Positions 2,824-49,792 of a stretch of DNA of 64,000 bases are shown piece after piece. This DNA comes from a phage. The notes under the pieces were generated by a model. The model saw nothing but the letters and a program-made list of their open reading frames with translations, was not told where the DNA came from and did not search any database. The stretch lies in sequence record PX104380.1; one strand, written 5' to 3'. The position numbers and the translations under genes were made by a program. How positions within the stretch are numbered: position 1 is the first letter of the stretch; the number at the start of each line of letters is the position of its first letter.

Positions 2824-2853
2824 ATAGTACCATGGAAGAACAGTCTTGTAAAC
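2824..2853 (-). promoter_or_regulatory. T4-type early promoter (-35 GTTTACA, 17-nt spacer, -10 TACTAT) with conserved leader
   Basis: Plus-strand atagta at 2824-2829 and tgtaaac at 2847-2853; cassette repeated at five other sites. Confidence 0.55.
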
Positions 2854-2940
2854 AGTTTTGTGAAAATTTTTTAGGGAATTCTAAAGGTCCAGAATCATCT
2901 GTTTTTCATAAGTATAGATTTATATTACTTGTATGAAAAA

Positions 2941-2956
2941 GGGACCCGGAGGTCCC
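2941..2956 (-). terminator. stem-loop followed by U-run downstream of gene 43 (minus strand)
   Basis: gggacccggaggtccc inverted repeat; minus strand reads GGGACCUCCGGGUCCC then UUUUU. Confidence 0.55.
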
Positions 2957-2969
2957 TAGATTTATTCTA

Positions 2970-5666
2970 TCAGCCAAACAGGAAGTCTAACGAAGCTTTT
3001 TCTTCATAGTCCATACCAGCCGATTCACACATGCCCGCAAGCGGTTTAACAAACGATTTTTGGAACAAAGTTGAATAGTCAATCCAAGACAGTACGTCAG
3101 AACGAATTTCTTTTGGAAGTTCTGTACCCGACGGCCAAGCAATGCATTTGTCACCAAATGGATTTCCTTCACGCAATGGAAGAACCATTACTTTATTTCC
3201 ATCCAAAATTGGAGCTACACCTAAACCGCTAACAGCTCGACGATAAGTTAGCACACCACGAATATGGAACGGACATTTAAATCCTGGCCAACCTTTATCA
3301 TCATATTTCGCTATATCGTTCGCAGTTTTTACTTCAGCAATAACTTTATAGTCAAGTTGACGATATTCTTTCTCGAAGTTCTTGTAATATTCTTGGACAG
3401 ACTCTTCACCTTCCTGAAGAATACGACGAATACTTTCTTCAAGAGCTTCTTGGACCGCTTTAGGCGTTGAACTTTGCTGAGTTTCCATACCCATGATTTT
3501 TAGATGCGGTTCAGCAAATCGCTTATCTTCCATATCATAAACGTTCAGAGCATAACGCTTTTTCGCTTTCCAAAATCCACCAACGCCCTTTGAACCAAGT
3601 GGAGGGCAAGAAATAGCTTCACGGTCCATATGCATCAGATGCTCGCGGTTATTCATATAATCACATAACTCACGATATGCAACATCAATCATAGGTTCCA
3701 TCTTTTTCTTACCGAACTGATTCATGAATTCAACTAAATCGTTCTGCTCTTTGAATCGGCCAAGACCAACTTTTTCAATAACTTTATCTACACAAACATA
3801 TACCGAATCAGTATCACCTGCTGCGATGAAATCTTCGCCATTAGTTCCGCATACTTTATTCAGATATTCATTAATTTTACGAGCAATCCACTGAATACCA
3901 ACTTGGCCGAAAATTGTGATAGCAGTAGCATTTCGCAAATCATAGTAACGGAAATGAATATTACCAAGAGCACCATAAAGACTGTTAATAAGAATTTTAC
4001 GGTTCAGCTGATTTGTGTTAGCAAGTGTAGCCGCTTTTTCACATTCTTCAATCAAACTATTGAGAACAGATTCAGTATAATTCGATAGTTCATTTAAGAA
4101 ATCATCACTGAACTTAACATATCGTTCAACTTCAGGTTTAGTTGAACAAGACCCTGCGCCTTTCATAATAATCTTTTTAATAGCTTCGGCATTCATTTCT
4201 TCAGCGAACATTTTCTTTTTCCAATCTTTACGCTGGAAAAATACTTTAGCGATTTCCTTTGGAATGATACCTTCTTGATGCTTATCGTACATCCATCCAT
4301 TCGGAGAACAAGAATATTCATCACTCGGTTTAGGAGCTGTTCCTGCGATATATTCATGAATTGGATGAACTTTAAACTGACCACGAATAGTCTCAGGACT
4401 AATGTTAACCTGACGAATAATGCTCGGATACAGAGAAGTCAAGTCAAAACTCATAATATATCGACGAGCAATTGGTTTAGGTTCAAATACGAATGCACCC
4501 GGAAAACTCTGTTTAACATGCGAACCTTGTTGAGGAATAACCTTATGTTCACCTTTCAATGAGTTAAAAATAATAGCATCCCAGGTTTTAATAGGACTCA
4601 TTACACCAGAAAAAGGCATTTTAGCGTAATAAGACATACTTAAAACTAGATCGATAAACCCGCGAATTTTATCAATTGCTTGAACTGATTCTACGTCAAT
4701 GATGTTATAACTAATGTATCGTTGATGATTAGTCTCACGAAGTTTATTAATAGGACCGTCGTATGGTAATTTACCTTTTTTGGTTTCATGCTGAGCAACT
4801 GATTCCAAAGAGAATGACGGCAAATTAGTAAATGCGAATTTCTTATACAAATCTAAATAATCAAGAATAGATACGCCATCAATAGAATAAATTTCTTTGC
4901 TACCGTACATATTTTGGATAAGTTTAGATTTTACTCGACCGATTGGAGAGAAGCGTTTCATACTACGTTCACCGAGAACCATTTTAACGCGATTCATGAT
5001 ATACGGAACGTCAAACCCCTCAATATTCCAACCAGTAAAAATAGCAGGTCGTTTCTGTTCCCAGAGATTGATATATTCCATGAGCATATCACGCTCATTA
5101 TCGAATGGCATATAAATTACTCGGTCAAGAATTTCTTGAGGAACTTCATCACCACCTTCACAGTCAAGCTTAGCAGCTAACTTTGCATCCCATTTTGATA
5201 CTGAACCATACATTGAATTCAAAAGGTCGAAAACATAAAAACGATCATCAATTGAATCGTAATGAGTGATAGCATCAATTTCATATTCTGCTTTCATTGG
5301 GTCAGGAAATTTATCGCCAGTAACCTCAATGTCACAGTTAGCTACACGAACAAATTTTCGGTCATAAACAATTTCTGAACCGTATGTATCACTGATATAA
5401 GCGAGTTTAAAATCGTTCATACCGAGAGCTTCGAGACCGATATCTTCCATTCGTTTCATCCAATCTCGAGCATCTTTCATTGATGGAAATTTTTGAGGAG
5501 CGCAGTTTTTACCATAGATGTCTTTGTACTTTGACTCTTCCTTACAATGCCTAAACATAGTTGGAAGATATTCTACTTCACGAGTACGTTCCTTTCCGTT
5601 TTCATCAATATAACGTTCAACAATGTTATTTCCGACTGTTTCAATAGAGATATAAAATTCTTTCAT
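2970..5666 (-). CDS. 43: DNA polymerase (family B) with 3'-5' exonuclease
   Basis: 898 aa, same length as T4 gp43; exo motif FDIE, polymerase motifs SLYPS and YGDTDS; ATG at 5664-5666. Confidence 0.95.
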   Translation of the reverse strand: MKEFYISIETVGNNIVERYIDENGKERTREVEYLPTMFRHCKEESKYKDIYGKNCAPQKFPSMKDARDWMKRMEDIGLEALGMNDFKLAYISDTYGSEIVYDRKFVRVANCDIEVTGDKFPDPMKAEYEIDAITHYDSIDDRFYVFDLLNSMYGSVSKWDAKLAAKLDCEGGDEVPQEILDRVIYMPFDNERDMLMEYINLWEQKRPAIFTGWNIEGFDVPYIMNRVKMVLGERSMKRFSPIGRVKSKLIQNMYGSKEIYSIDGVSILDYLDLYKKFAFTNLPSFSLESVAQHETKKGKLPYDGPINKLRETNHQRYISYNIIDVESVQAIDKIRGFIDLVLSMSYYAKMPFSGVMSPIKTWDAIIFNSLKGEHKVIPQQGSHVKQSFPGAFVFEPKPIARRYIMSFDLTSLYPSIIRQVNISPETIRGQFKVHPIHEYIAGTAPKPSDEYSCSPNGWMYDKHQEGIIPKEIAKVFFQRKDWKKKMFAEEMNAEAIKKIIMKGAGSCSTKPEVERYVKFSDDFLNELSNYTESVLNSLIEECEKAATLANTNQLNRKILINSLYGALGNIHFRYYDLRNATAITIFGQVGIQWIARKINEYLNKVCGTNGEDFIAAGDTDSVYVCVDKVIEKVGLGRFKEQNDLVEFMNQFGKKKMEPMIDVAYRELCDYMNNREHLMHMDREAISCPPLGSKGVGGFWKAKKRYALNVYDMEDKRFAEPHLKIMGMETQQSSTPKAVQEALEESIRRILQEGEESVQEYYKNFEKEYRQLDYKVIAEVKTANDIAKYDDKGWPGFKCPFHIRGVLTYRRAVSGLGVAPILDGNKVMVLPLREGNPFGDKCIAWPSGTELPKEIRSDVLSWIDYSTLFQKSFVKPLAGMCESAGMDYEEKASLDFLFG

Positions 5667-5669
5667 AGA

Positions 5670-5705
5670 TATTCCTTAGTTTATAGCCCGAGTTATTAGG
5701 CTCTT
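5670..5705 (-). promoter_or_regulatory. gene 43 translational operator (hairpin plus Shine-Dalgarno)
   Basis: Minus strand reads GAGCCUAAUAACUCGGGCUAUAAACUAAGGAAUAUCUAUG, recalled as the T4 gp43 autoregulatory operator. Confidence 0.6.
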
Positions 5706-5726
5706 GATATATTATACTCCAAATAA

Positions 5727-5740
5727 GGGGCCGAAGCCCC
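5727..5740 (-). other. UUCG-tetraloop RNA hairpin (GGGGCUUCGGCCCC on minus strand)
   Basis: Plus ggggccgaagcccc; one of a family of nine intergenic hairpins. Confidence 0.5.
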
Positions 5741-5744
5741 TTGC

Positions 5745-5966
5745 TTAAATTAGTACTATTTGTCGGTGAAAAATTGTCATTCCATCTGCATTAATTGACT
5801 TAACGACTGCAGTAAAGTGTTTTTGTTCTGGGTGAATTAATTTTTGAAATTCTACCTGAAATTTTAGTTGAAGATTTTCTGGTAAATCGAAAAGTGTTTC
5901 TGTTGCAGAAAGATTATATTTTTCTTTAAGAGACGCCATGTATTCTTGTGGAGTTATAGCAGTCAT
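5745..5966 (-). CDS. hypothetical small protein between regA and 43
   Basis: Track ORF 5745-6008; internal ATG at 5964-5966 sits 1 nt after the regA stop, giving 73 aa; no gene recalled here in T4. Confidence 0.35.
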   Translation of the reverse strand: MTAITPQEYMASLKEKYNLSATETLFDLPENLQLKFQVEFQKLIHPEQKHFTAVVKSINADGMTIFHRQIVLI

Positions 5967-5967
5967 A

Positions 5968-6336
5968 TTAATTACCAATCGTATATTTAGGAACGAGTTT
6001 CCATTCATGTTTTTGTTTAAAAGAAATAACTCGGAAGTTATTAGTTAAATCTTTCATAAAAGTTCTTTGACCAGGAACGATTTCAATCAGTCCCCAATCT
6101 TCTAATAGCCATGCAATCGAATCACGACGAACTTCATCTTCTTCTGTCATTTCAACTTGGCGACCATCCATACGAAGCATTTCTTTAAAATGAACGATAT
6201 AATATAGTCCTTTTTTCTGAAGAATATGACAGGACTGATACAGAACTTTATCTTTATTATTAGCAATTCCCATACGAGTCAAAGTTTCTTTTACTTTCAG
6301 AAAATCTTCAGGTTTTTTAAGAGTAATTTCAATCAT
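5968..6336 (-). CDS. regA: RegA translational repressor
   Basis: 122 aa, same length as T4 RegA; between 62 and 43. Confidence 0.85.
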   Translation of the reverse strand: MIEITLKKPEDFLKVKETLTRMGIANNKDKVLYQSCHILQKKGLYYIVHFKEMLRMDGRQVEMTEEDEVRRDSIAWLLEDWGLIEIVPGQRTFMKDLTNNFRVISFKQKHEWKLVPKYTIGN

Positions 6337-7913: not shown

Positions 7914-8600
7914 TTAAAAATCGTGGGTAGAATCAGCTTCAAGAGCTACTACATAATTCGCGTGTTCACCTTCAAATTTAGCAGCACCTTGTTTACCTTT
8001 TGCCCAGAGCAGAAGTTTATAATTTCCTGGTTGCATTTTCATATTTGCCATATTGATAATGAAATTAAATGTATTTTCACCATCATAATCACCAAGAGTC
8101 AAAGAATATTTAACACGTGTCAGAGCAGAATCTTCTACTTTATTAAAACCGTTAATTACGATTTTACCTTCTTTTACCGTGATAGCAATTGTATCAATTT
8201 GCAGACCACGAGATACACGCAACAGTTGTTGAAGGTCTTCAGCTTTAATTTCAGTAACAACAGATGCTACCGGGAATGGAATTGGTTTATTAGGAGCAAC
8301 TACTGTACTCGGATCGGCTGCTGGCCAAAAAATTGTTGAACGGGCATCAGCAATTTTAATATTTCCATCTTCTGACTGGGAAATTTCTGCATCATCATTA
8401 ACTAGAGACAGAATACCGAGAAAACCGTTCAAATCGTAAATTGCTACATCAAAATCAATAGTGTCAGAAATATTTGCTTCCGCATAAGTTGTACCATTAA
8501 CTGCGCGAGTCATAATAAATTGACCGGATTTAAGCATAATACCGGAGTTAATAGTAGCGAAATTTTTCAAAATATTCAGTGTGTCTTTAGATAATTTCAT
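7914..8600 (-). CDS. 45: sliding clamp
   Basis: 228 aa, same length as T4 gp45; synteny. Confidence 0.9.
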   Translation of the reverse strand: MKLSKDTLNILKNFATINSGIMLKSGQFIMTRAVNGTTYAEANISDTIDFDVAIYDLNGFLGILSLVNDDAEISQSEDGNIKIADARSTIFWPAADPSTVVAPNKPIPFPVASVVTEIKAEDLQQLLRVSRGLQIDTIAITVKEGKIVINGFNKVEDSALTRVKYSLTLGDYDGENTFNFIINMANMKMQPGNYKLLLWAKGKQGAAKFEGEHANYVVALEADSTHDF

Positions 8601-9484
8601 TTCAATTTCCTATTTACATAATAGTTAGACCAGGACCGTACAGCACCCTGATAAGATTCGTCGTTAAACCCATTAGCTACTGCAATTTTACGAAATTTAT
8701 TATAACTCGGTTTTCCGTAAGCATGCCATAAAGATTTTAATTCATCTTCATGTTCAATCCAAGTTCCTCTAGCTTTAGATTTTCTAAATTTTGATTTGAA
8801 TTCCGGTGAATTATTTCTAACAGTTGCTTGAATTGAAGCTCTCTGTCTTCTTTCAGCATTATTCCATAACTCTTTTTGAGATTTAGAAATTTTTGATTTT
8901 ACACTTTCTGAATTCATTATATCACTAAACTTTTTAGCATAACTGCAATCAAGATATTTCAATTTCATCTTATTTGAAAGTTTAAGCTTTTTCTCATCGG
9001 TCCAGTGATTCTTCATTGAATTAGATATTTTGTATTTTACGTCAGAACTATGTTTGTAACCTTTACGAATACCAACATAATCGGGCGTAATTTCAGATTG
9101 CGAAAGCTTTACAATTTTTCCAGTTAAAACATTTTTATATGTTCCATATCCTTTAGCGCCAATTAAAGTATTTTCATCTGCGTATGCTTTATTAAAATAT
9201 TTTATATTACTTTTTGCTTTAACTTTTAATTGAAAAAATCTTTCCAATTTTCTTGGATCTAATATAGTTTCAGCTAAAATTTTGACGGTATATTTAGTGG
9301 TTTTAATAAGCTCAAAATATTCATCGCTATAACTCGATGACACGCTTCCAGTATAAATCTTTCCAGCTGAATCAATTATATTTGTTCCATCGAAAATTGC
9401 GTCAATTTTCGAACCTATATAATAACATGGAAAAATATTTTTAGCTTCCCGCTCTGGAAAGCTAATAAGATATACTAAATTCAT
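8597..9484 (-). CDS. free-standing homing-endonuclease-like protein (degenerate GIY-YIG, NUMOD-like C-terminus)
   Basis: 295 aa inserted between 45 and rpbA; N-terminal VYLISF...YYIGSK; C-terminal repeats [10 protein letters not shown] and [11 protein letters not shown]; 4-nt overlaps at both ends. Confidence 0.5.
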
Positions 9485-14649: not shown

Positions 14650-14700
14650 TTAATATCCTCTTTGTTTTGGTTTATTTTACCAAAAATTTATAAAGCAATA

Positions 14701-34674: not shown

Positions 34675-34676
34675 AA

Positions 34677-35142: not shown

Positions 35143-35158
35143 GTCTCCCGAAGGAGAC
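35143..35158 (-). other. UUCG-tetraloop RNA hairpin
   Basis: Plus gtctcccgaaggagac. Confidence 0.45.
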
Positions 35159-35163
35159 TAATG

Positions 35164-35840: not shown

Positions 35841-35852
35841 AAAGGCCTCCTA

Positions 35853-36065: not shown

Positions 36066-36107
36066 ATATACCCCTTTAGTTAGATAAACCTATTTATAAC
36101 TTTTGCA

Positions 36108-36689: not shown

Positions 36690-36690
36690 C

Positions 36691-38976: not shown

Positions 38977-38983
38977 GTTTACC

Positions 38984-39445: not shown

Positions 39446-39472
39446 GTTATTCTCCTCTTAACTGATAGAAAA

Positions 39473-39502
39473 ATTATACCACAGTCAAGAGGAAAAGTAA
39501 AC
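39473..39502 (-). promoter_or_regulatory. T4-type early promoter (-10 TATAAT)
   Basis: Plus attata at 39473-39478 and agtaaac at 39496-39502. Confidence 0.5.
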
Positions 39503-39504
39503 AG

Positions 39505-39825
39505 TTATTCTTTAAATCTAATCAATTTATTCATAGACTTTGAAACTTCTGCACGAACCTCATGTAAGTTTTTAAGCTGTTCAAGACGCTGCGTATAGTA
39601 AGCAATTTCATCTTCTTCGAGACAGTCCTGTGAATCTTCTTTAAGATAACGTGCATAGTCCTGAAAAGCTTTACGGACTACTTCCTGGAAGTCATCAAGA
39701 CTTTGAATTTTCTTAGGAGCGGCAGATACACGACGAGGTGCAGTATAATACTCATAACCAAACCCTGCACTTAATTGAGCCATTAGTATTTTTCCTCTGG
39801 TTGGAACACTGCACGACAAGCCCAC
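39505..39825 (-). CDS. hypothetical protein (vs.x region)
   Basis: 106 aa track ORF. Confidence 0.45.
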
Positions 39826-40085
39826 ATACTGGCTTCTTTGAGTTTCGTTTTAGCAATAGTTAACTGATCGAGGCTTTCAGCATAATTCTTCGCGAGTTCA
39901 TCATCTTCACAGCTATCAAATGCTTCCCAAAATTCATCGTATAAAGCATCAAAGATAAGTCCTAAACGAACTTCAGCGTCTTTGATAGCATTCACTTTAC
40001 TGATTTTCTCTTCGGTATGCGGCTTATAACCCTTAATATCTTCAATCATATTTGACTTCCTTACCAGTACATAAATCATATTCAA
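39783..40085 (-). CDS. hypothetical acidic protein (vs.x region)
   Basis: 100 aa. Confidence 0.45.
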
Positions 40086-40263
40086 CTAAACGAATAGGTT
40101 CATGAATGCCATATCCCTGAACAGAAATTTCTGTCGTGGGATAAATTCCATCAATATCACCCATATTCCAGGCTTCATTAAATTGCTGTTCGCCTGAATT
40201 ACTAAACCACTCGGCGAAAGCATTTAGCACATCTTCAGAACCTTCAATAATTATCTTTGCCAT
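40042..40263 (-). CDS. hypothetical acidic protein (vs.x region)
   Basis: 73 aa. Confidence 0.45.
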   Translation of the reverse strand: MAKIIIEGSEDVLNAFAEWFSNSGEQQFNEAWNMGDIDGIYPTTEISVQGYGIHEPIRLVEYDLCTGKEVKYD

Positions 40264-40625
40264 TACAAACTCTCGGTGAAGGTACGAGCGATAACGTCGC
40301 GCTGCTGTTCCGGAGTCAGAGAGTTAAAGCGAACTGCATAACCGGATACACGGATGGTCAGCTGCGGATATTTTTCCGGATGCTTAACTGCATCTTCCAG
40401 AGTTTCACGACGCAGAACGTTAACGTTCAGGTGTTGACCACCTTCAATTTTAACTGTAGGTTGTGTTTCAATTTCAATTTCACGGGCATGCAAACCGTAG
40501 AAAATTTCCGGGTCTACAAAAGAGTCCTCTTTAAAGGTTTTAGAGACAATAATTCGTGCTTGAATACCATCTTCAAAATAAATAGTACCTTTATGTGTGC
40601 CTTCAAGAATTTGATATGCTTTCAT
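40263..40625 (-). CDS. autonomous glycyl radical cofactor (GrcA/YfiD-like)
   Basis: 120 aa; C-terminal [31 protein letters not shown] matches the glycyl-radical motif RVSGY. Confidence 0.8.
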
Positions 40626-40632
40626 ATAAACC

Positions 40633-41013
40633 TCAATTAGAAAATAAATTTATCCAAGATTGTTCTTTAATTAAAAACGGCTCAGAATCATATGCCATTA
40701 AACTTTGCGTAATTAATCCTTTAAAAGGTCCATCAATAAATTCCATGGTAAAATATGGAATTTTATTCATTAGCCGTGCATTAGGAGCAGTACATAAAAC
40801 TCTGCATCCTTTGAATACACCTTTTTGTAATTTGTATTGCTTGGGATAAAATTCGCTCAAAATGTTATTATTTGCTAAAATTTCAAAATGATTCACCAAT
40901 TTATTTTTAATAGTTTTTGGCGAAAAATAAAGATATTCGAAAAGTTGCGTATCTGTCATCATTGCATTCCAATTACGAAAAACTGCGGACGAGTAATACC
41001 ACCAATACAGCAT
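40633..41013 (-). CDS. hypothetical protein
   Basis: 126 aa; likely starts at internal Met near 40960 overlapping the upstream stop. Confidence 0.45.
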
Positions 41014-41612
41014 TTACTATTGCAGCAATATTGCACAGTTTCAATATGAATATCGTAAATTTTATCCATATCAGGAGATTTAACAGGCTCATCGATTATA
41101 TACAAAATTCGAGAAAGCGATAAACCTCTGAACTTGCTACCTCTATTACCAACAAAACTACGGACAGAATCAGTAAATAAACGAAAACGTATATCATCAT
41201 TAGAATAACGCGAAAATTCCTTTTTAATGTTATTTGCAGAAATTTCAGCGTAAGCTGAAGTATTAGAAAGAACAATAACTGTTCCGCCATCATACAGCCA
41301 ATTAGCAGCAAAGTTAGTCACAGCAATTGATTTACCGGATTGACGTCCACCATCTATACGAAGTGTGCAGTACTGTTTAAGTAATTCTTCAAATGGCGGG
41401 ATATATTCGTTTTTACAAATTTCTTCTACTCTAGCATCAGAATGGTGTGTAAAAGCATTCATCAGGGATAGATACGGGCCAGTTAAAAATGTTCTCATAT
41501 TATTTCTCTTAAGGTTTTTGGGCCATTCCATGGCACATGAGTTGTCCATTCCTGCATTACCCATTACCGCACTTGGGCTCGACCTTATTACAGGTTGGCG
41601 GGAATCCCTCAT
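40959..41612 (-). CDS. small P-loop NTPase of unknown function
   Basis: Walker A GGRQSGKS and Walker B ILYIIDEP; several in-frame Met starts. Confidence 0.55.
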   Translation of the reverse strand: MRDSRQPVIRSSPSAVMGNAGMDNSCAMEWPKNLKRNNMRTFLTGPYLSLMNAFTHHSDARVEEICKNEYIPPFEELLKQYCTLRIDGGRQSGKSIAVTNFAANWLYDGGTVIVLSNTSAYAEISANNIKKEFSRYSNDDIRFRLFTDSVRSFVGNRGSKFRGLSLSRILYIIDEPVKSPDMDKIYDIHIETVQYCCNSKCCIGGITRPQFFVIGMQ

Positions 41613-41641
41613 AGAATCATGAGGTCCAGGTTGTTCCCATA

Positions 41642-42115
41642 TTATTTGAACGATTTAACGTACTGAATAGAACCTTTACTATTTACAAAGGCAATTTTAC
41701 CATTTTTATTATACATGGTAGCAGTACGTTGATAACCATAAGTTTGTTTACCAGATTGATAACCAACTAATGCGAAATTATCTTCGCCCATTTTATTCTG
41801 TTTAGCGCGAATGCGTTCATGACCATGTGCCATAAGAACCTTAGCATCACCAGTTACAATGGATCGACGAGTTTTTTCATCTTCAACTGTATTAACAAAG
41901 TCGTCAAATGAATCAAATTTAGCATGAGATTTATTATACAGTTTTCCATCTACTGCATAATTATATCCCTGTACATCCATCTCAACTTCTGTACCATCAT
42001 CCAATACAGCAGTAATTTTCTGTCCTTTTTTAAATTTCAAAAGATCAGTAAAAGATTCAGCAATAATTTGAGAATTAATAGCTGCTTCAGTGATAAATTC
42101 TTGATATGTTTTCAT
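41642..42115 (-). CDS. capsid internal protein (IPII/IPIII-like)
   Basis: 157 aa beginning MKTYQEFITEA, the capsid-targeting sequence of T4 internal proteins; upstream of gene e. Confidence 0.7.
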   Translation of the reverse strand: MKTYQEFITEAAINSQIIAESFTDLLKFKKGQKITAVLDDGTEVEMDVQGYNYAVDGKLYNKSHAKFDSFDDFVNTVEDEKTRRSIVTGDAKVLMAHGHERIRAKQNKMGEDNFALVGYQSGKQTYGYQRTATMYNKNGKIAFVNSKGSIQYVKSFK

Positions 42116-42168
42116 GTGTTTCCTTTAAATATTTTAATTAGTAATTTGTCTCTTCAAGCAACTGTGAA

Positions 42169-42198
42169 TATACTATCACAATTCTAGGAGAAAGTAAA
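42169..42198 (-). promoter_or_regulatory. T4-type early promoter
   Basis: Plus agtaaac at 42192-42198; -10 around 42169-42174. Confidence 0.4.
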
Positions 42199-42203
42199 CA
42201 ACT

Positions 42204-42734
<531 letters not shown>

Positions 42735-43190
42735 TTAAAAGAGGCTGTTCATTATTCGGTAAAGTGAAGGACCCATCACATATTGCCACTGAGTACGAGG
42801 AATAAGAGCAAAAGCATCCATCTCTGGAATCATAACGCCATCTTTATTTTCAAAATAAGACTCGCAATGGCAATTTCTGAACATCTCATGCTCTACTGGA
42901 ATCGTATAATAAAATAACTGTAAGTCTTTATTACTAGAATATTTAAATACACCTAGGTCTTCTAGAAGGTCTGGATTATAATTGCTAAAACCGGTCTCTT
43001 CTAAGCATTCTCTTTTTGCAGCTTCCAATGCATTCAAATCAGAATTTTCTACGCGGCCCTTTGGAATATCCCAACGATGTGCCATCATTCCAGGCTTACG
43101 AGAACCAGTAACCCGACCCATAAATAAATCTTTATCTTCTGTCATAAAGATAATACCAGCTGATAGTGTTTTCATTTTAATTTCCTGCAT
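42735..43190 (-). CDS. nudE: Nudix hydrolase
   Basis: 151 aa; Nudix box GRVENSDLNALEAAKRECLEETGF. Confidence 0.85.
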   Translation of the reverse strand: MQEIKMKTLSAGIIFMTEDKDLFMGRVTGSRKPGMMAHRWDIPKGRVENSDLNALEAAKRECLEETGFSNYNPDLLEDLGVFKYSSNKDLQLFYYTIPVEHEMFRNCHCESYFENKDGVMIPEMDAFALIPRTQWQYVMGPSLYRIMNSLF

Positions 43191-43660
43191 TCAGTGATAA
43201 AGTTATTTAAATTTTGAGTATATTTCTTTTCATCAAAAATCTTTTGTTGTCTGCGTAAACGCCATGGCATTTCAATGAACACGCACCACATTCCTGATAA
43301 TATTGCTGCTGTCAAAATATTAACAAGCATAATTAAAAGAATCCAATCTCCTGTTCTGCCTATTGGACTTTCACCAAAGAAGCAAAATACAAATGATGTC
43401 ACAGGAAAACTAATGATATACCACAGAATCATAATCTTATTTGTAAACCAATCAGCGTTCGTTAGCTTAGCGCGACCATTATGAATACACACGAATTTAT
43501 CATCTGTTATAATAGATGGCTTAGCTGCTTGATATCCCATTCTAAACTCCCTAATCAACAAATTTTTCATATCTTCGGAACAACCATTCCAGTCAACTCT
43601 ATTAACTGAAATGCCATCATCCCCATCATCTAAATCATACCAGCGAGTTTTTAAAATCAT
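43172..43660 (-). CDS. hypothetical membrane protein (e.x region)
   Basis: 162 aa with central transmembrane segments. Confidence 0.5.
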   Translation of the reverse strand: MILKTRWYDLDDGDDGISVNRVDWNGCSEDMKNLLIREFRMGYQAAKPSIITDDKFVCIHNGRAKLTNADWFTNKIMILWYIISFPVTSFVFCFFGESPIGRTGDWILLIMLVNILTAAILSGMWCVFIEMPWRLRRQQKIFDEKKYTQNLNNFITECRKLK

Positions 43661-44019
43661 TTAATTTTCCTGCAATCACTCACAAACTCTTCCATTGATT
43701 CTTTTTCAATATAAGACATGTAGTTGTTATATTCCTTTAATTGTATTTTGTAATCCTTTTTTCTTTGCCAATTTATTTTAAAATTATCATAATGAAAATA
43801 TAACATGGTACCAAAGAATGAAAATAATGAAATAATTTTAGTATAGTGAAGTTCACTCCAAACTTCTATTATATTTACTGTGCCGTCAATGTTTAAAATA
43901 ATACAGTCAATTAACAATCCAAAAAGACTACCCGCAAGAGCTGCAGCCAACGCCACAGCAAAAATTAAAAATGACTCAGGAAGAGAATATTTGACTTTAT
44001 TTAGTTTTGGCTTTTGCAT
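43657..44019 (-). CDS. hypothetical membrane protein (e.x region)
   Basis: 120 aa, two hydrophobic helices. Confidence 0.5.
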   Translation of the reverse strand: MQKPKLNKVKYSLPESFLIFAVALAAALAGSLFGLLIDCIILNIDGTVNIIEVWSELHYTKIISLFSFFGTMLYFHYDNFKINWQRKKDYKIQLKEYNNYMSYIEKESMEEFVSDCRKIK

Positions 44020-44393
44020 CGTGATTCCTTAACAAATTTCATAATTTCATCAAATTCATGTGCAGCAAGTTTAAGCTGATGTTCCTTTTTAATCTTTTTA
44101 CACTGGGCTTTCCAATCACGTACACGTTTACGATAGTGTCTTCCTTGATACCAGTATCCCACCCAATTTACAGGTACTAATAAAAATGGAACTATCATTG
44201 GAAGAATTAGTGTTGACGCAAATATTACATTAGATTCAATATCAGTCATAACATCTATAACTATTCCAACCCCCAGTAGAATTACAAATGATACAGCTAT
44301 TACAGGACCTATTAATACATCAGTAGAAATTAGCTGGCGCTTTAATTCATACTTCAACGGTTTACTTGGAAGATACATTGATGGCTTTGACAT
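44001..44393 (-). CDS. hypothetical membrane protein (e.x region)
   Basis: 130 aa, two hydrophobic helices, basic C-terminus. Confidence 0.5.
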   Translation of the reverse strand: MSKPSMYLPSKPLKYELKRQLISTDVLIGPVIAVSFVILLGVGIVIDVMTDIESNVIFASTLILPMIVPFLLVPVNWVGYWYQGRHYRKRVRDWKAQCKKIKKEHQLKLAAHEFDEIMKFVKESRCKSQN

Positions 44394-44970
44394 ATTCTCT
44401 ACATTCCTTCACAAATTTTTCTAATAATAAATCGCTTTCAAAATTGGGATTTTCCACGAATTTATCAAAAAGATCATCAACAATAGTTAAGATATTCTTT
44501 TTACTAAGAATACGCTTATTTTCATGCTTCGTTTCAGAATCAACTATAAGAGTAAAGAAATATTTCTTGCCCTGAAATTTTACAGTAGTATCAATATAGA
44601 ATAAATTTGACTTTTGTAAATTACGTTTAAACCATGCATCACTTAAACTATAAACGCCAAGATAATCATAATCGTCGTTTAAATAACAGACCGTCCATTC
44701 AGGAGAAACAAAATCAGTAAATTCAACGTCAAAATCGCATGTTAATGAATGAATTGATTCAATACTGTTAATAAGTATTCCAGGACGTATTAAAGACTTT
44801 TTACCTCTAGAAAATCTTCCAGAAAGATTTTCATCAGTTTCATATGAAGAACCCCAATAATAATTACGTCCTTCTGCCATACGTTTAAGAGCATTTAATA
44901 ATTGGTCTGGAACATCAACTCGTCTTTGGAACTCTTCAAACATTGAATTGAAATCACTTTGCATTTTCAT
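44362..44970 (-). CDS. hypothetical protein (e.x region)
   Basis: 202 aa. Confidence 0.5.
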   Translation of the reverse strand: MKMQSDFNSMFEEFQRRVDVPDQLLNALKRMAEGRNYYWGSSYETDENLSGRFSRGKKSLIRPGILINSIESIHSLTCDFDVEFTDFVSPEWTVCYLNDDYDYLGVYSLSDAWFKRNLQKSNLFYIDTTVKFQGKKYFFTLIVDSETKHENKRILSKKNILTIVDDLFDKFVENPNFESDLLLEKFVKECREYVKAINVSSK

Positions 44971-44990
44971 TCCTACTTACTCCAAGTAAT

Positions 44991-45006
44991 AGGGGCCGAA
45001 GCCCCT
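44991..45006 (-). other. UUCG-tetraloop RNA hairpin
   Basis: Plus aggggccgaagcccct. Confidence 0.5.
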
Positions 45007-45011
45007 TATCA

Positions 45012-45605
45012 TTATTTCAGAGAATTAATGTATTCCTGAACATCGGCAGAGGTAGTTTCAACCCCAGAAATATTGCCATTAAAGGTTTCAACTCGGGCAA
45101 GAGTATCTTCAATATCAACCTTAGTCAGTGCTGCAATTTCAACTACATCATCAGCAGTACTAATTCCAAGTGCATTCGCAGCACGAGTTTCACGGATATA
45201 TTCCAATTTAACTGCAAGTTCTTGACGAGCATCATCTAACTCAACTACTTTCTTGGCGATTTCAATTCGCATTTCAGCATAACCATCAGCTTTAGTAGTC
45301 AACTGCTCAGCTGTTCGACGATATAGTAAACCGAGTTTAGCATGCATTGTTACATCTTGACCTTCAGAAAGGAGCTTGCGAATTTCGCGCTCTTTTGATT
45401 CGGCCTGCTTATTCTTTTCGACAATAAGTTCACGAATACGCTTTTCTTCGTTAATAGATTTAATGGAAGCAGTTTTTAGGTCTTTAATCTTATCAAGTAG
45501 TTTTGCTGCTGCAGCAGTATACTGTTCTTCAACAGATAGATTTTTAGCCATAGCAGAACCAAGTTTAGTGCGAATAAACTCAACAATTTTCTTCAGTGTG
45601 TTCAT
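45012..45605 (-). CDS. coiled-coil protein, possibly PspA/IM30-like
   Basis: 197 aa, almost entirely helical with heptad-like charge pattern; resemblance to PspA is impressionistic. Confidence 0.45.
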
Positions 45606-45647
45606 AGTATTTCCTTAGGTTGATTAAAATTAAAATCCACAGAAAAA

Positions 45648-46181
45648 TTATATCATGCTATTTAAGAGATGTAAACTATTTTTAATTTTACAAATTCGTT
45701 CAGCTTCTTCAACAGCGGCAGTGATAATGCTTTTAGCTATAGGAGTACTAATACTAGTAGCTTTTACACTTAACACGATTTCTTTATCTTTACCAGGCCA
45801 ACCCCACGATTTTTCACCATGAGTGCCTTTAATTACAGCAGACACCTCAAGTGAGCATCCATTATCACATGTTTTTACATTAACAACCCAAGTGTCACTT
45901 TTCTCAACCGGTTTATCCCAGTAAATATTAAGAATACGTGGGACATCAAATTTAGCAGGGCAAATCTTAACAGTAAGACCTTCGCTTTCTAGCCAATTAA
46001 TAAGAGGGCGTTCATACATGCGGCGATGTGGGCTTTGAACTCGACAAGCTTTGTACCCATTGCTTGCGGCTTCACTAAGCTCTTCTAATACCTGCTTTTG
46101 CATTATTGATAAGATACCATCAAAAGATTTTTCGGAAGTTTCATTCAGTTCGGTATAAAGAGACATAACAGTTTTCCTCAA
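45648..46181 (-). CDS. hypothetical protein
   Basis: 177 aa; track start is TTG, first ATG at 46164-46166. Confidence 0.5.
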   Translation of the reverse strand: MRKTVMSLYTELNETSEKSFDGILSIMQKQVLEELSEAASNGYKACRVQSPHRRMYERPLINWLESEGLTVKICPAKFDVPRILNIYWDKPVEKSDTWVVNVKTCDNGCSLEVSAVIKGTHGEKSWGWPGKDKEIVLSVKATSISTPIAKSIITAAVEEAERICKIKNSLHLLNSMI

Positions 46182-46192
46182 ATTATAGGCTC

Positions 46193-46222
46193 ATAATATC
46201 TCAATCATGAGCCTATGTAAAC
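46193..46222 (-). promoter_or_regulatory. T4-type early promoter
   Basis: Plus tgtaaac at 46216-46222 and ataata at 46193-46198. Confidence 0.45.
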
Positions 46223-46498
46223 TTATTTCATATTATTGAAATATTCTTCTGCAATTTCGTCGTTATCATGATAAACTTTAGAAGACAGTTTAACATAACC
46301 TTCAGCAGTGAACATGTTAATCACAACCTTTACAGTATACCACTGACCATCTTCATTACCCATTACTGCGTAAGTTTCAAACATCGGATGATCAGGACCG
46401 ATAACTTTAATATCATTCACTGTACGACCAAAATCTTCTGAAACACATTTCATAAAGAAGTTGAACAGTTCGCCGTAATTATCCATTTCATTCTCCAA
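46223..46498 (-). CDS. hypothetical protein
   Basis: Track start is TTG; ATG at 46484-46486 (MDNYGELF) preceded by conserved ggagaatgaa leader. Confidence 0.5.
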   Translation of the reverse strand: MENEMDNYGELFNFFMKCVSEDFGRTVNDIKVIGPDHPMFETYAVMGNEDGQWYTVKVVINMFTAEGYVKLSSKVYHDNDEIAEEYFNNMK

Positions 46499-46529
46499 GT
46501 TGTTTTCTGTATCAGTAGTTGATAGTTGT

Positions 46530-46559
46530 ATAGTACCATAGAAGAACAGGGATGTAAAC
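46530..46559 (-). promoter_or_regulatory. T4-type early promoter with conserved leader
   Basis: Plus atagta at 46530-46535 and tgtaaac at 46553-46559. Confidence 0.55.
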
Positions 46560-46697
46560 AGTTTTGTGAAAAATTTTTTAAAAAGTTTTGGGGAATTCTA
46601 GGGCAAGGAGGGGAAATTAAAGGATAGGATAATATATTATAAAGGGTAGAAACTAAATGATGCCTAGAGAGGCCTGGAAAGGCCTAGATACCAAAAA

Positions 46698-46719
46698 GCC
46701 CCAACCTTTCGGTCGGGGC
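46698..46719 (-). terminator. rho-independent terminator (minus strand)
   Basis: Minus strand GCCCCGACCGAAAGGUUGGGGC followed by UUUUU. Confidence 0.55.
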
Positions 46720-47030
46720 TAAGCCTTGCGGCAACCTTGTCGGGGTTCCACCTGCTAAGGCAAGTGTTTGTACGAAACGCCGGGATTCGAACCCGGTTAT
46801 TAAGCAGTTGACGCTACTCAATATTTTTAAAAGGCCATATCTCGACCATATCCGAACGTTCCGTCAAAAACGCTACTCGGCTTACGGCAAAGATATTTCC
46901 TCGAATCGATAATTCGGTGCGCCGTTTCTGCTGTGATGTAAGAGGGCATCAATAAACGCAAGGATTATTAACGCAATTCCTTACTCAGGGAACATCAGTC
47001 CGACGACTTACCGGTAGCGACCCGGTTTCT
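46720..47030 (-). ncRNA. candidate stable structured RNA with tRNA-like T-arm, downstream of tRNA-Arg
   Basis: No ORF of 60 aa or more; minus strand contains CCGGGUUCGAAUCCCGG (5-bp stem, canonical T-loop) near 46779-46795 and ends at the terminator. Confidence 0.4.
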
Positions 47031-47380
47031 TAATATTCTTTTAAAGCATAAATCTGTTTACGGCGTTCACGCCATAAATCAATTGCTTCATACGCGGATT
47101 CAACATTTCGAATTGGACGGCATTTATATAAAGATTTGTGATTTTGATATTGCGTAGATAACGGAATTTTATCTAAAAGGTCTTTACGTTCAAAGTATTC
47201 GTAACCATCTAAGCCAAATGAACGATTTTTGAGAAATTGCCAATGACCAAATTCGTTTTGAATATAAATATAATCCGCGTGTTGATAAAGTAAATTAATT
47301 TCACGAAATGAGATATGTTTTTCATATTCATTGAAGTAAAATGTTAAATCATGAACTACTAAATAAACATTACCTTTCAT
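47030..47380 (-). CDS. hypothetical protein inside the tRNA region
   Basis: 116 aa ORF between tRNA-Arg and the structured RNA. Confidence 0.45.
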   Translation of the reverse strand: MKGNVYLVVHDLTFYFNEYEKHISFREINLLYQHADYIYIQNEFGHWQFLKNRSFGLDGYEYFERKDLLDKIPLSTQYQNHKSLYKCRPIRNVESAYEAIDLWRERRKQIYALKEY

Positions 47381-47398
47381 ATTTTCCTCACTTATAAT

Positions 47399-47474
47399 TG
47401 GTCGAGGCAGTAGGGATCGAACCTACGACCTAGGACTTAGAAGGTCCTTGCTCTTCCTTCTGAGCTATGCCCCG
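47399..47474 (-). tRNA. tRNA-Arg (anticodon UCU)
   Basis: 76 nt cloverleaf by hand folding; acceptor CGGGGCA/UGCCUCG, anticodon loop CUUCUAA, T-loop UUCGAUC, CCA encoded. Confidence 0.85.
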
Positions 47475-47478
47475 TAAT

Positions 47479-47554
47479 TGGGGTGACCGATGGGAGTCGA
47501 ACCCATGACTACGAGAATCACAATCTCGAGTTCTACCAACTGAACTACGGCCAC
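47479..47554 (-). tRNA. tRNA-His (anticodon GUG)
   Basis: 76 nt; anticodon stem CGAGA/UCUCG, loop UUGUGAU, discriminator C73, CCA encoded; no encoded G-1. Confidence 0.8.
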
Positions 47555-47668
47555 ATTAATACCTACTCCAACAATCAAGATGTCTTCACACGAAATTAAG
47601 AGAAGAGTGATCAGTTCAACCCCTATAATCGCGTCAAGTAGATATTAATGTGACAGTTGTCACAAATT

Positions 47669-47743
47669 TGGCGGACGTGATAGGATTCGAACCTATAACC
47701 AATCGCTTAACAGGCGATCGCTCTGCCATTGAGCTACACATCC
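47669..47743 (-). tRNA. tRNA-Asn (anticodon GUU)
   Basis: 75 nt; anticodon stem AUCGC/GCGAU, loop CUGUUAA, T-loop UUCGAAU, CCA encoded. Confidence 0.8.
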
Positions 47744-47747
47744 AAAT

Positions 47748-47834
47748 TGGTGGGGAGTGGTGGAGTCGAACCACCCGAGTCGCAATGACAATGAATTTAC
47801 AGTCCACACCGCTACCTCTACGGGATAACTCCCC
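47748..47834 (-). tRNA. tRNA-Tyr (anticodon GUA), class II
   Basis: 87 nt with long variable arm; anticodon loop CUGUAAA; acceptor GGGGAGU/ACUCCCC; CCA encoded. Confidence 0.75.
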
Positions 47835-47843
47835 AAATTAATT

Positions 47844-47918
47844 TGGTGGCCCTGGGTGGAATTGAACCACCATCTGGCGATTATGAGTCGCTTGCTTGAA
47901 CCTTCCAGCTACAGGGCC
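47844..47918 (-). tRNA. tRNA with CAU anticodon (Ile2 by position, or Met)
   Basis: 75 nt; anticodon loop CUCAUAA; acceptor GGCCCUG/CAGGGCC; CCA encoded. Confidence 0.75.
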
Positions 47919-47919
47919 T

Positions 47920-47995
47920 TGGTGCTGATTAACGGAATCGAACCGCCGACCTTCTCATTACAAGTGAGTTGCTCTACCTACTGAGCTAAATCAGC
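47920..47995 (-). tRNA. tRNA-Thr (anticodon UGU)
   Basis: 76 nt; anticodon loop CUUGUAA; T-loop UUCGAUU; CCA encoded. Confidence 0.8.
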
Positions 47996-48000
47996 AAAAC

Positions 48001-48090
48001 TGGCGGAGGTGATAGGATTCGAACCTATGAATCGCCGGAGCGACTGCCGGTTTTCAAGACCGGTGCATTCAACCACTCTGCCACACCTCC
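48001..48090 (-). tRNA. tRNA-Ser (anticodon UGA), class II
   Basis: 90 nt; anticodon stem CCGGU/ACCGG, loop CUUGAAA; long variable arm; CCA encoded. Confidence 0.8.
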
Positions 48091-48092
48091 AG

Positions 48093-48166
48093 TCTCCATA
48101 CAAGGATTTGAACCTTGGACCTCCTGATCCCAAATCAGGCGCTCTACCAAACTGAGCTACACGGAG
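48093..48166 (-). tRNA. tRNA-Pro (anticodon UGG)
   Basis: Anticodon stem CCUGA/UCAGG, loop UUUGGGA; C1-G72; 3' CCA not encoded. Confidence 0.8.
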
Positions 48167-48176
48167 TAAATTAAAT

Positions 48177-48250
<74 letters not shown>

Positions 48251-48255
48251 AAATT

Positions 48256-48342
48256 TGGTGCGAGAAGTGGGACTCGAACCCACAAGGAAATCATTCCGCA
48301 GCATTTTAAGTGCTGTGCCTTTACCAATTTGACCATTCTCGC
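48256..48342 (-). tRNA. tRNA-Leu (anticodon UAA), class II
   Basis: 87 nt; anticodon stem CAGCA/UGCUG, loop CUUAAAA; long variable arm; CCA encoded. Confidence 0.8.
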
Positions 48343-48343
48343 G

Positions 48344-48416
48344 CTGGGAATAAAGGACTCGAACCTTTGCATCCTGGAATCAAAATCCAGTGCCTTACCA
48401 ACTTGGCTAATTCCCA
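48344..48416 (-). tRNA. tRNA-Gln (anticodon UUG)
   Basis: 73 nt; U1-A72; anticodon stem CUGGA/UCCAG, loop UUUUGAU; CCA not encoded; 1 nt from tRNA-Leu. Confidence 0.8.
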
Positions 48417-48801: not shown

Positions 48802-48804
48802 TAT

Positions 48805-49224
48805 TTACCCTTCATCAACAATAGTATGAGTGTGGGCATTTACAATTTGCCACCAATCAAAGCGATTAGAACCATACATTGGTTTGTTCTCATTTTCTTT
48901 GATAATGTCACGGAGTTCATCTTCGGTAGCGGCTTTCGCGATTAAATCAGCATACCCACCGCGAGGATAATAATTATCACCCGCAAAAAGTAAAAAGTTC
49001 GGTTTAATATTATTGAACTCTTCAAGAGTAATAACTTTTCCTGTCGGTTGAACAATCTCTACATATTTATATCCTAATTTTTGAGCAGCATCTACTGCTT
49101 CAAGCAGGGTATCATGAGCCCATCCAATTTGGCAATCTGGCTTTTCAGATGGATTAGCCTGATAATCCGCGTACACTTTATACATTCTATTCACCTTTAG
49201 AAATTTTATCCATAACGATAGCAA
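48805..49224 (-). CDS. hypothetical protein
   Basis: 139 aa; probable start at internal Met (MYKVYADYQ). Confidence 0.5.
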   Translation of the reverse strand: MLSLWIKFLKVNRMYKVYADYQANPSEKPDCQIGWAHDTLLEAVDAAQKLGYKYVEIVQPTGKVITLEEFNNIKPNFLLFAGDNYYPRGGYADLIAKAATEDELRDIIKENENKPMYGSNRFDWWQIVNAHTHTIVDEG

Positions 49225-49372
49225 TTAAACCAATTAAAAATGCTACTACAAGTGAAAAAACATTTTCTGCTGTAGTCAATAATCCGCATATAAATCCAAC
49301 AAACATTGAAAAACTAAAAGCAGAAGCAGAAATTGCAATAGCAACATTTCGAATTAATTCACAGCGTTTCAT
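49187..49372 (-). CDS. small membrane protein
   Basis: 61 aa, almost entirely hydrophobic; behind an early promoter. Confidence 0.45.
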   Translation of the reverse strand: MKRCELIRNVAIAISASAFSFSMFVGFICGLLTTAENVFSLVVAFLIGLIAIVMDKISKGE

Positions 49373-49400
49373 TTTATTCTCCTCAGTAGTTGATAGGGTA

Positions 49401-49430
49401 ATAGTATCACAACTAAAACCCTATGTAAAC
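49401..49430 (-). promoter_or_regulatory. T4-type early promoter in a stem-loop context
   Basis: Plus atagta at 49401-49406 flanked by inverted repeat tagggt...accctat; tgtaaac at 49424-49430. Confidence 0.5.
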
Positions 49431-49448
49431 AACTTTGTGAAAAATTTA

Positions 49449-49733
49449 TTACAAAAGATTTTTAGCAATAATTTTAAGCTGAGCTACTGAAATATGCTTG
49501 GCTTTAAACAAAGCAGTTTCTTCAGCAGGGGAGATAACGATTGTAGCACCATCTTTCTTAGCGGACCATCCATCACCCAGGTAAACAGTACCTTTGACTT
49601 CTTCGCCATCAACCAGGCTAATCATCGGTTTACCTTCACGTCCTTTGTTTGCTTTAATAACTTCAGAAGTAAGGGTCGCTTCAGTCAAAGTAGAAGCGTT
49701 AGTGGTTGAAGTGAATTCTTGATAAGTTTTCAT
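49449..49733 (-). CDS. ipI: capsid internal protein I-like
   Basis: 94 aa beginning MKTYQEF (capsid-targeting sequence); T4 position of ipI next to 57B; strong early promoter upstream. Confidence 0.7.
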   Translation of the reverse strand: MKTYQEFTSTTNASTLTEATLTSEVIKANKGREGKPMISLVDGEEVKGTVYLGDGWSAKKDGATIVISPAEETALFKAKHISVAQLKIIAKNLL

Positions 49734-49762
49734 TTTATTTTCCTAATTAATTTTGATGAGGT

Positions 49763-49792
49763 AATAGTATCACTACCTCATCAGCATGTAAA
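49763..49792 (-). promoter_or_regulatory. T4-type early promoter in a stem-loop context
   Basis: Plus atagta at 49763-49768 inside inverted repeat tgatgaggta...tacctcatca; tgtaaac at 49786-49792. Confidence 0.5.

Follow-up and report, generated by a model that had tools for sequence, protein, structure and literature searches.

Early promoter-leader cassettes of the T4 type in a Tequatrovirus genome segment: sequence, gene exchange and embedded hairpins

In a 64,000-nucleotide stretch of phage DNA (record PX104380.1; this whole stretch is referred to below as the window), a promoter-leader cassette recurs 13 times on the minus strand. These repeats are very probably early promoter/leader cassettes of the T4 type, as found in Tequatrovirus, and belong to the kind of element known as promoter-early stem-loops (PeSLs). 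Such cassettes have already been described, so that the present ones are known elements found again in a new T4-like genome and are ordinary for a genome of this type. Exchange of the genes behind the cassettes is supported at four slots, whereas most cassettes are stable promoters of conserved early genes. A hairpin embedded in some of the promoters is the one part of the system that possibly adds to current knowledge.

Number, sequence and identity of the cassettes

The initial annotation had reported six copies of GTTTACA-N17-TACTAT on the minus strand, and for the exact core this is correct: exactly six exact matches are present, all on that strand (2824-2853, 29204-29233, 31340-31369, 46530-46559, 49401-49430, and 49764-49793). 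As a total, however, six is too low. When up to two mismatches are allowed, there are 18 matches compared with 3.2 ± 1.5 in 100 shuffled sequences, none of which reached 18, and a weight matrix built on these sites places 13 cassettes above threshold on the minus strand and none on the plus strand. Each cassette is named here by P and the position of the 5′ G of GTTTACA (for example, P2853); these positions are 2853, 17691, 29233, 31369, 34314, 35126, 39502, 42199, 45676, 46222, 46559, 49430, and 49793. All 13 lie within 1 to 53 kb, and the late-gene part of the window has none. A generic sigma-70 promoter scan was uninformative (95 sites versus 82 expected), the T4-specific pattern alone standing out, and Rfam at gathering thresholds returned only tRNAs and no family matching the cassettes.

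The cassettes are uniform in composition. The −35 element is GTTTACA or GTTTACT and the spacer is 17 nucleotides (nt) long in all 13, and the TGn motif, in the form of TGG or TGA immediately before the −10 box, is present in 12 (P46222 has “gaga” instead). The −10 box takes the form TAnnnT, with the variants TACTAT, TATTAT, TATAAT, TATAGT, and TAGTAT. In most copies an UP element is also present, as the block AAAWTTTTCACAAAGTT or as a similar stretch rich in A and T. A conserved start region, ACAACTATCAACTA or TACCCTATCAACTA (also given as CTATCAAC), is followed some 20 to 50 nt downstream by a GGAG Shine-Dalgarno sequence, and GGAGAATAAAATG forms the 3′ end. Every cassette stands directly 5′ of an open reading frame (ORF) with a Shine-Dalgarno sequence. 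Similarity between copies in register spans 40 to 84 nt and is exemplified by P2853 and P31369, which agree at 72 of 84 positions with a longest exact run of 27.

The 13 cassettes and their structural features are as follows (all on the minus strand; energies are in kcal/mol, and z scores are relative to dinucleotide shuffles of the same cassette).

P2853, 2784-2878: UP element, GTTTACA (2853-2847), 17-nt spacer, TACTAT (2829-2824), leader, GGAGAATAAAA, and ATG at 2786; the target is a 77-amino-acid (aa) ORF (2553-2786, minus strand) that is absent from T4, where the orthologous promoter drives imm.1.
P17691, 17629-17716: upstream of 55.6; −10 box TATTAT; no significant hairpin.
P29233, 29173-29258: upstream of nrdC.8; 2 nt separate the stop codon of nrdC.9 from the −35 element.
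Hairpin of P29233, 29179-29223: 15 bp, with the 5′ arm in the promoter spacer and the 3′ arm, CAGAGGAACAG, being the nrdC.8 Shine-Dalgarno sequence; −23.9, z −6.3.
P31369, 31302-31419: upstream of nrdC.10; a canonical intrinsic terminator (31400-31419 plus T-run) comes before the promoter.
RegB/S1 site of P31369, 31305-31315: an exact GGAGAATAAAA.
P34314, 34254-34339: upstream of mobD.2; hairpin at 34272-34307 around the −10 box; −19.0, z −4.25.
P35126, 35066-35159: upstream of mobD.5; an intrinsic terminator (35142-35159) comes before the promoter.
P39502, 39443-39527: the regB early promoter; hairpin at 39450-39496; −22.4, z −5.3.
P42199, 42113-42224: upstream of a 157-aa internal-protein-like ORF (41642-42115) that starts MKTYQEFITEA and matches Pfam DUF7412.
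P45676, 45603-45701: upstream of e.6; the downstream border of the exchangeable e.7 slot.
P46222, 46164-46247: upstream of a 172-aa ORF that replaces T4 e.7; hairpin at 46185-46216 around the −10 box; −18.1, z −4.7.
P46559, 46484-46584: upstream of e.8; farther 5′ there is a canonical terminator (46697-46720).
P49430, 49370-49455: upstream of trna.4; hairpin at 49393-49424 (ATAGGGT/ACCCTAT) around the −10 box; −14.2, z −2.3; exact RegB/S1 site at 49372-49382.
P49793, 49731-49818: upstream of ipI; hairpin at 49754-49783 with a stem of about 13 pairs and the core TGATGAGGTA/TACCTCATCA; −17.4, z −4.3.

The window is assigned to Tequatrovirus on the basis of 96 to 98% identity to RB51, RB68, AR1, RB14, T6, and G4507, among many genomes (megablast of 28 to 33 kb and 44 to 52 kb); RB51, AR1, and G4507 are about 97% identical to the window. 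Its G+C content is 32 to 40%, and the genes of the first 53 kb or so are nearly all encoded on the minus strand. T4 is colinear with it from gene 42 to gene 10 at 93 to 98% identity over most of the region, apart from two short segments in which identity drops to about 73% and about 86% and some 20 indels or replacements that break the alignment. The T4 gene order was recovered by BLASTP of individual ORFs (42, imm, imm.1, 43, regA … nrdC.1-11 … regB … e … tRNAs … ipI, 57B, 57A, 1, 3, 2, 4), which identifies the minus strand as the early/middle strand of T4.

Early promoters of T4 are known to have GTTTAC at −36 to −31 and an A-rich UP element (Nolan 2006, PMC1524935) and have been called “uber UP/−35/TGn/−10” promoters with additional consensus regions (Hinton 2010, PMC2988021). 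The cassettes share with them the GTTTAC motif, the 17-nt spacer, TGn, TAnnnT, the UP element, and the location on the early strand 5′ of early genes. Nothing essential differs, although a few of the downstream ORFs do (the extra ORF after gene 43, the e.7 replacement, and different internal-protein genes). A scan of T4 places a promoter at the orthologous location for imm.1, 55.6, nrdC.8, nrdC.10, mobD.2, mobD.5, regB, ipIII, e.6, e.8, trna.4, and ipI (T4 positions 27080, 41706, 53943, 55384, 57990, 58780, 62797, 66498, 69967, 70696, 73572, and 73939, in addition to the e.8/e.7 junction). Promoters are not annotated in the T4 records of GenBank and RefSeq, which therefore supply no mapped coordinates; the regB promoter is documented as early (PMC3014915). 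Across all loci, promoter matches in the sense orientation outnumber those in the antisense orientation by 277 to 8. What can be held against the assignment is that promoter activity in this phage is predicted from T4 orthology and consensus matches.

The suggested resemblance to the promoter-early stem-loop cassettes of T4-type genomes is borne out, since this is the right kind of element. In phages phi1 and RB49, a PeSL consists of an AT-rich region, an early promoter, a stem-loop, and the Shine-Dalgarno sequence with its ATG, and the stem-loop is most commonly found between −35 and −10 or overlapping −10 (Arbiol 2010, PMC2839356); the same paper also mentions analogous, AT-richer elements at the internal-protein loci of T-even phages, citing Repoila 1994. 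PeSLs were later extended to T4 and PST with the consensus TTTACW-N17-TAYWAT and were shown near indels (Comeau 2014, PMC4122927). The window has the same composite in a single orientation, in plastic early regions and, for some copies, at the junctions of indels and replacements; the T4/PST consensus fits, and the stem-loop positions correspond to the commonest phi1/RB49 classes. There are also differences. The embedded hairpins of the window are AT-richer and lack G/C-tract stems and a T-run, which makes a terminator function doubtful. The figure legend for T4/PST puts the stem-loops upstream of the promoter, an arrangement matched here only by P2853, P31369, P35126, and P46559. Overall, a stem-loop is embedded in six cassettes, a canonical hairpin lies upstream of four (three found by a terminator scan and one, after gene 43, read from the sequence), and three cassettes have neither.

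The 3′ end of the cassette, GGAGAATAAAATG, agrees with the T4 consensus of the target of the RegB/S1 endoribonuclease, GGAGAAUAAAA, the general form of which is GGAGRAYARAA. Exact sites number three in the window versus 0.43 expected, and all three are in cassettes (2789-2799 in P2853, 31305-31315 in P31369, and 49372-49382 in P49430). RegB needs this motif in single-stranded form and is inhibited by secondary structure (Durand 2006, PMC1702504); no strong structure is predicted in the leaders of these three cassettes. The other 10 cassettes are inexact: several are one or two substitutions away from the consensus, and some carry GGAA, such as that of ipI with AGGAAAATAAAA. GGAA is poorly cut by RegB (PMC1702504).

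As T4-type early promoters, the cassettes, with GTTTAC at positions −36 to −31 and the other elements listed above, would be read by the unmodified sigma-70 RNA polymerase of the host in the first minutes of infection. RegB/S1 would later cut those Shine-Dalgarno sequences that have the full form GGAGAAUAAAA, thereby inactivating early mRNAs. For annotation, the 13 sites mark early transcription units and indicate which small ORFs are independently expressed early genes.

Gene exchange at the cassettes

The six exact copies had been described as each lying directly upstream of a different small gene. The ORFs are indeed different (the 77-aa ORF, nrdC.8, nrdC.10, e.8, trna.4, and ipI), although nrdC.10, with about 320 aa, is not small. 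It had also been proposed that these genes are candidates for recently exchanged cargo, which is supported for two of the six copies (P2853 and P49793) and, in addition, for two cassettes outside the six, but not for nrdC.8, nrdC.10, e.8, or trna.4. Comparison of the flanking genes across relatives shows neither that all are syntenic, since four slots are variable, nor that all have been exchanged, since most are stable. The four slots at which exchange of cargo is supported are those of the ORF after gene 43, ipI, ipII/III, and e.7.

At the P2853 slot, homology with T4 continues through the promoter, the leader, and ATGAAAAT and picks up again at the ATGAAAAT of imm.1. The 77-aa ORF in between is polymorphic for presence and absence, being found in 317 of 515 matching phage records and not in T4. 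It has a hydrophobic, signal-like start (MKIVIGCLAVCLVALAAVPF…) and no Pfam match, and it appears in several GenBank records as a second “immunity” gene beside imm.

The e.7 slot, from P46222 to P45676, is multiallelic. The window is the same as T4 through the promoter and hairpin of P46222 and diverges right after the 3′ arm; the two then contain unrelated ORFs and different e.6 promoters, and homology returns at the e.6 Shine-Dalgarno sequence. The allele of the window is present in 106 of 546 records, and several other insert lengths occur. P45676, from its −35 element through its −10 box, falls within the 3′ end of the 172-aa ORF before it, the stop codon of which overlaps the −10 box (45648-45701, minus strand).

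The internal-protein genes account for the other two slots. Behind P42199, the ipII/III slot is multiallelic, and the window has a different internal-protein-like ORF, namely, the 157-aa ORF at 41642-42115, in the place that is occupied by ipIII/ipII/denV in T4. Between 57B and trna.4, relatives have from zero to five internal-protein ORFs, all starting MKTYQEFI…, together with one to three cassettes. The ipI allele of the P49793 slot is found in 168 of 589 records. One relative (L026) has a mosaic cassette that combines the upstream flank of P49793 with the spacer, −10 box, and discriminator of P49430, a chimera that is indirect evidence of exchange between copies.

Many copies have 40 to 85 nt of near-identical sequence in the same orientation, which would allow homologous recombination to occasionally swap, insert, or delete an ORF between two copies. 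Changes of this kind are seen at the internal-protein and e.7 slots, while most cassettes are stable orthologous promoters of conserved early genes. Gene and promoter have been kept together in T4 for nrdC.8, nrdC.10, e.8, trna.4, regB, mobD.2, mobD.5, and 55.6 and also, in some more distant T4-like relatives, for nrdC.8, e.8, trna.4, regB, and 55.6. In this respect the window departs from the PeSL description, because most of its cassettes flank conserved genes and not shuffled ones.

In a comparison of the window with five close relatives, the cassettes, which account for about 4% of the sequence, contain 10 of 66 breakpoint clusters, and this speaks for recombination at cassettes. Two points count against it. 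The enrichment is confounded, as the comparison was not controlled for the fact that cassettes are intergenic and that whole-gene indels end between genes anyway. Furthermore, most indels relative to T4 are homing-endonuclease genes without a cassette (mobB, mobC/seg, I-TevII, the segE-like gene, mobD, segB, and segC).

The copies might also be alike simply because strong T4 early promoters share one optimum, in which case they would owe nothing to common descent or gene conversion and would not be sites of recombination. In favor of such convergence, conservation is strongest in columns of known function (UP, −35, TGn, −10, and the GGAG/RegB site), T4 and distant relatives have orthologues of most cassettes in the same places beside the same genes, and no exact run between copies is longer than 27 nt. 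However, nonadjacent copies share positions that have no known function, including agactgttc in the spacer of P2853 and P29233 and atacagattt in the leader of P2853 and P31369. T4 homology breaks exactly within cassettes at four slots, and the mosaic cassette of L026 joins parts of two copies. Convergence is for these reasons an unlikely account of the similarity. The ORF after gene 43, ipII/III, e.7, and ipI provide clean cassette-bounded gene slots for the study of phage evolution, whereas most cassettes are stable promoters and not signs of recent exchange.

Hairpins embedded in the promoters

Each cassette was folded from the −35 element to the ATG and compared with 300 dinucleotide shuffles. 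Significant hairpins are present in six of the 13, with z scores from −2.3 to −6.3 (see the list above). The initial annotation had noted two copies with the −10 region between inverted repeats; both P49430 and P49793 are among the six, but two is an undercount. The other seven cassettes fold like their shuffles. These include P2853 and P46559 (z scores of +0.4 and 0.0), for which a weak pairing of the spacer (TTCTTCC/GGAGAA) was consequently dropped from consideration.

In all six hairpins, the 5′ arm lies in the spacer between −35 and −10. The 3′ arm is the Shine-Dalgarno sequence in P29233 (nrdC.8) and P39502 (regB), and in the other four the arms enclose the −10 box. In P39502, the spacer sequence CCTCTTGACTG is paired with CAGTTAAGAGG, which takes in the regB Shine-Dalgarno sequence; in P49793, only part of the −10 box is left unpaired in the loop. 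The same hairpins are present in T4, along with a 14-bp one at the ipII promoter. This T4 promoter (65718-65799 of the T4 record) has a perfect 14-bp stem of the CTCCTAGAATTGTG/CACAATTCTAGGAG type around its −10 box (−20.4 kcal/mol), and its slot is replaced in the window.

A wider sample was assembled from 56 IMG/VR loci around 57B and nrdC.11, which together with T4 and the window gave 233 unique early promoters. Pairing between a spacer and the leader of the same promoter reaches ≤−12 kcal/mol in 43% of these, compared with 5.5% for the leaders of other promoters (Mann-Whitney P ~ 1e-30). Among 122 hairpins of ≤−10 kcal/mol, 77 begin right after the −10 box and 41 overlap the Shine-Dalgarno sequence. 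The modal loop is 9 nt and consists of TGn plus the −10 hexamer (42 of 122), and a T-run follows the hairpin in only 2 of 122. Folds of the sense strand are more stable than those of the antisense strand (−10.9 versus −10.0 kcal/mol; Wilcoxon P = 4e-7), and G-U pairs are more numerous (93 versus 66); this sense-strand bias and G-U excess are weak evidence for a role of the hairpins at the RNA level.

The embedded hairpins are concentrated at compact gene junctions. The median distance from the upstream stop codon to the promoter is 10 nt with an embedded hairpin versus 43 nt without one (P ~ 1e-6), and the association between an embedded hairpin and a canonical upstream terminator is negative (odds ratio, 0.34; P = 0.04). 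The same split is seen in the window, in which P2853, P31369, P35126, and P46559 have separate upstream terminators, and at the six hairpin promoters the stop codon lies 0 to 18 nt before the −35 element.

Pairing is conserved where sequence is not. Among orthologues, including those of distant relatives, the arm sequences turn over completely while the pairing is kept (for example, in nrdC.8 and trna.4). The clearest anti-Shine-Dalgarno case is regB, with compensatory changes in relatives that have RegB proteins about 58 to 78% identical, and nrdC.8 is a second case, with several orthologues. In 14 of 17 unique orthologous regB promoters, an anti-Shine-Dalgarno sequence is located at spacer position 2-3, and helix positions +2, +4, +5, and +6 each show three or four different Watson-Crick pair types. 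Covariation in regB was counted on sequences anchored on the Shine-Dalgarno core, a procedure that replaced the column-based alignment, and the test of cognate versus noncognate duplexes was used alongside it.

Since the 5′ arm is inside the promoter spacer, the promoter's own transcript does not contain that arm. Formation of the hairpin would therefore require single-stranded DNA or an RNA that started farther upstream and runs through the promoter. At regB and nrdC.8, where the 3′ arm is the Shine-Dalgarno sequence, read-through RNA would be neither translated nor cut by RegB at that site, and sequestration of the Shine-Dalgarno sequence would tie expression of these genes to the proximal early promoter. 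Hairpins that enclose the −10 box would mark or insulate the 3′ end of the cistron before them where the junction leaves no room for a separate terminator. The rarity of T-runs, the covariation, the compact junctions, and the Shine-Dalgarno sequestration suggest control of translation or RNA stability in read-through RNA and not termination. We tentatively propose that, in about half of T4-like early promoters, the spacer encodes the 5′ arm of a hairpin specific to read-through RNA, with one subclass (regB and nrdC.8) that may gate translation and RegB cleavage and a second, −10-enclosing subclass that may serve as a terminator-less insulator or 3′-end stabilizer where the stop codon abuts the −35 element.

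Several points count against this proposal. The functions of the hairpins, for which the chances are at best close to even, are deduced from geometry and covariation alone. The 233 promoters include orthologues, so that independence is overstated and the P values given above are inflated. RNAalifold, applied to a MAFFT alignment of 19 regB promoters, returned no consensus pairs, which we attribute to the helices shifting register between lineages.

In the original PeSL model, the embedded stem-loops are transcription terminators or attenuators that act on upstream transcription. One RB49 PeSL stem-loop does terminate in a lacZ reporter (Arbiol 2010, PMC2839356), and the embedded hairpins described here sit where a separate upstream terminator is missing. 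Nevertheless, the near absence of T-runs is at odds with intrinsic termination, and a terminator scan of 28000-47999, which covers four of the six hairpins in the window, found none of them, although the same scan does find the canonical terminators upstream of P31369, P35126, and P46559. Furthermore, the overlap of the 3′ arm with the Shine-Dalgarno sequence in one-third of the 122 hairpins points to control of translation or of RegB access. The embedded hairpins were accordingly rejected as intrinsic terminators on sequence grounds, and we regard a terminator or attenuator role as improbable.

A role at the DNA level, in which a cruciform or single-strand hairpin displaying TGn/−10 in its loop, or a site for a dimeric protein, would modulate promoter opening, shut-off, or recombination, is less probable still: the commonest loop is exactly TGn plus the −10 hexamer, the mechanism of T4 early-promoter shut-off has been reported as unresolved (PMC3014915), and a stem-loop-binding recombination protein has been speculated upon (Arbiol 2010, PMC2839356), but the arms differ wholly from one promoter to another and among orthologues, which speaks against a protein binding a specific sequence, the sense strand is favored via G-U pairs, and the tight loop is more simply explained by TGn/−10 being fixed by promoter function, with the arms confined to the free flanking positions.

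The proposed control of read-through RNA has a precedent in T4, in which e, soc, 49, and I-TevI have hairpins that sequester the ribosome-binding site and, with an internal late promoter, delay translation until late infection (Uzan and Miller 2010, PMC3014915). As in those genes, the Shine-Dalgarno sequence of regB and nrdC.8 is paired with a 5′ arm upstream of the proximal start, and only the proximal transcript would have a free ribosome-binding site. In contrast to them, the internal promoter is of the early sigma-70 type and not late (gp55), and the 5′ arm is within its spacer. Because the internal promoter is early, the device would limit translation to the immediate-early period. The putative regB/nrdC.8 gate would thus work like the e/soc/49/I-TevI family without being a member of the described set and, if real, would be the immediate-early counterpart of these late-promoter hairpin gates. 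In the papers accessible to us, we found no description of an early-promoter Shine-Dalgarno gate at regB or nrdC.8; nor did the accessible T4 and PeSL papers mention, for embedded hairpins of T-even phages, the rarity of T-runs, the clustering where the stop codon abuts the −35 element, or a Shine-Dalgarno-sequestering subclass.

Other differences from T4

The set of homing endonucleases in the window differs from that of T4 (19197-20027 and 29621-30340, both minus strand, and 14640-14665, 21299-21302, and 56066-56071). Relative to T4, mobC is replaced by a seg-like GIY-YIG/NUMOD3 gene, a segE-like ORF is inserted between nrdC.9 and nrdC.10, and the window lacks mobB, segC, and the I-TevII intron of nrdD. 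A 295-aa ORF (8597-9484, minus strand) separates gene 45 from rpbA, two genes that are only 52 nt apart in T4. The ORF has no confident Pfam match and only a subthreshold match to DUF7132; its position and size suggest a free-standing, homing-endonuclease-like insertion.

Genes 49.2/49.3 (22958-23341) are replaced relative to T4, with no cassette close by. This agrees with the report that the exchange of g49.2/.3 in PST is not mediated by a PeSL (Comeau 2014). Two more insertions relative to T4 measure about 220 bp, between gene 43 and regA (5748-5968), and about 370 bp, between tk.2 and tk.3 (37062-37430). The tRNA cluster (47399-48416, minus strand) lacks segB and has 11 genes, for Arg, His, Asn, Tyr, Met, Thr, Ser, Pro, Gly, Leu, and Gln, compared with eight in T4.

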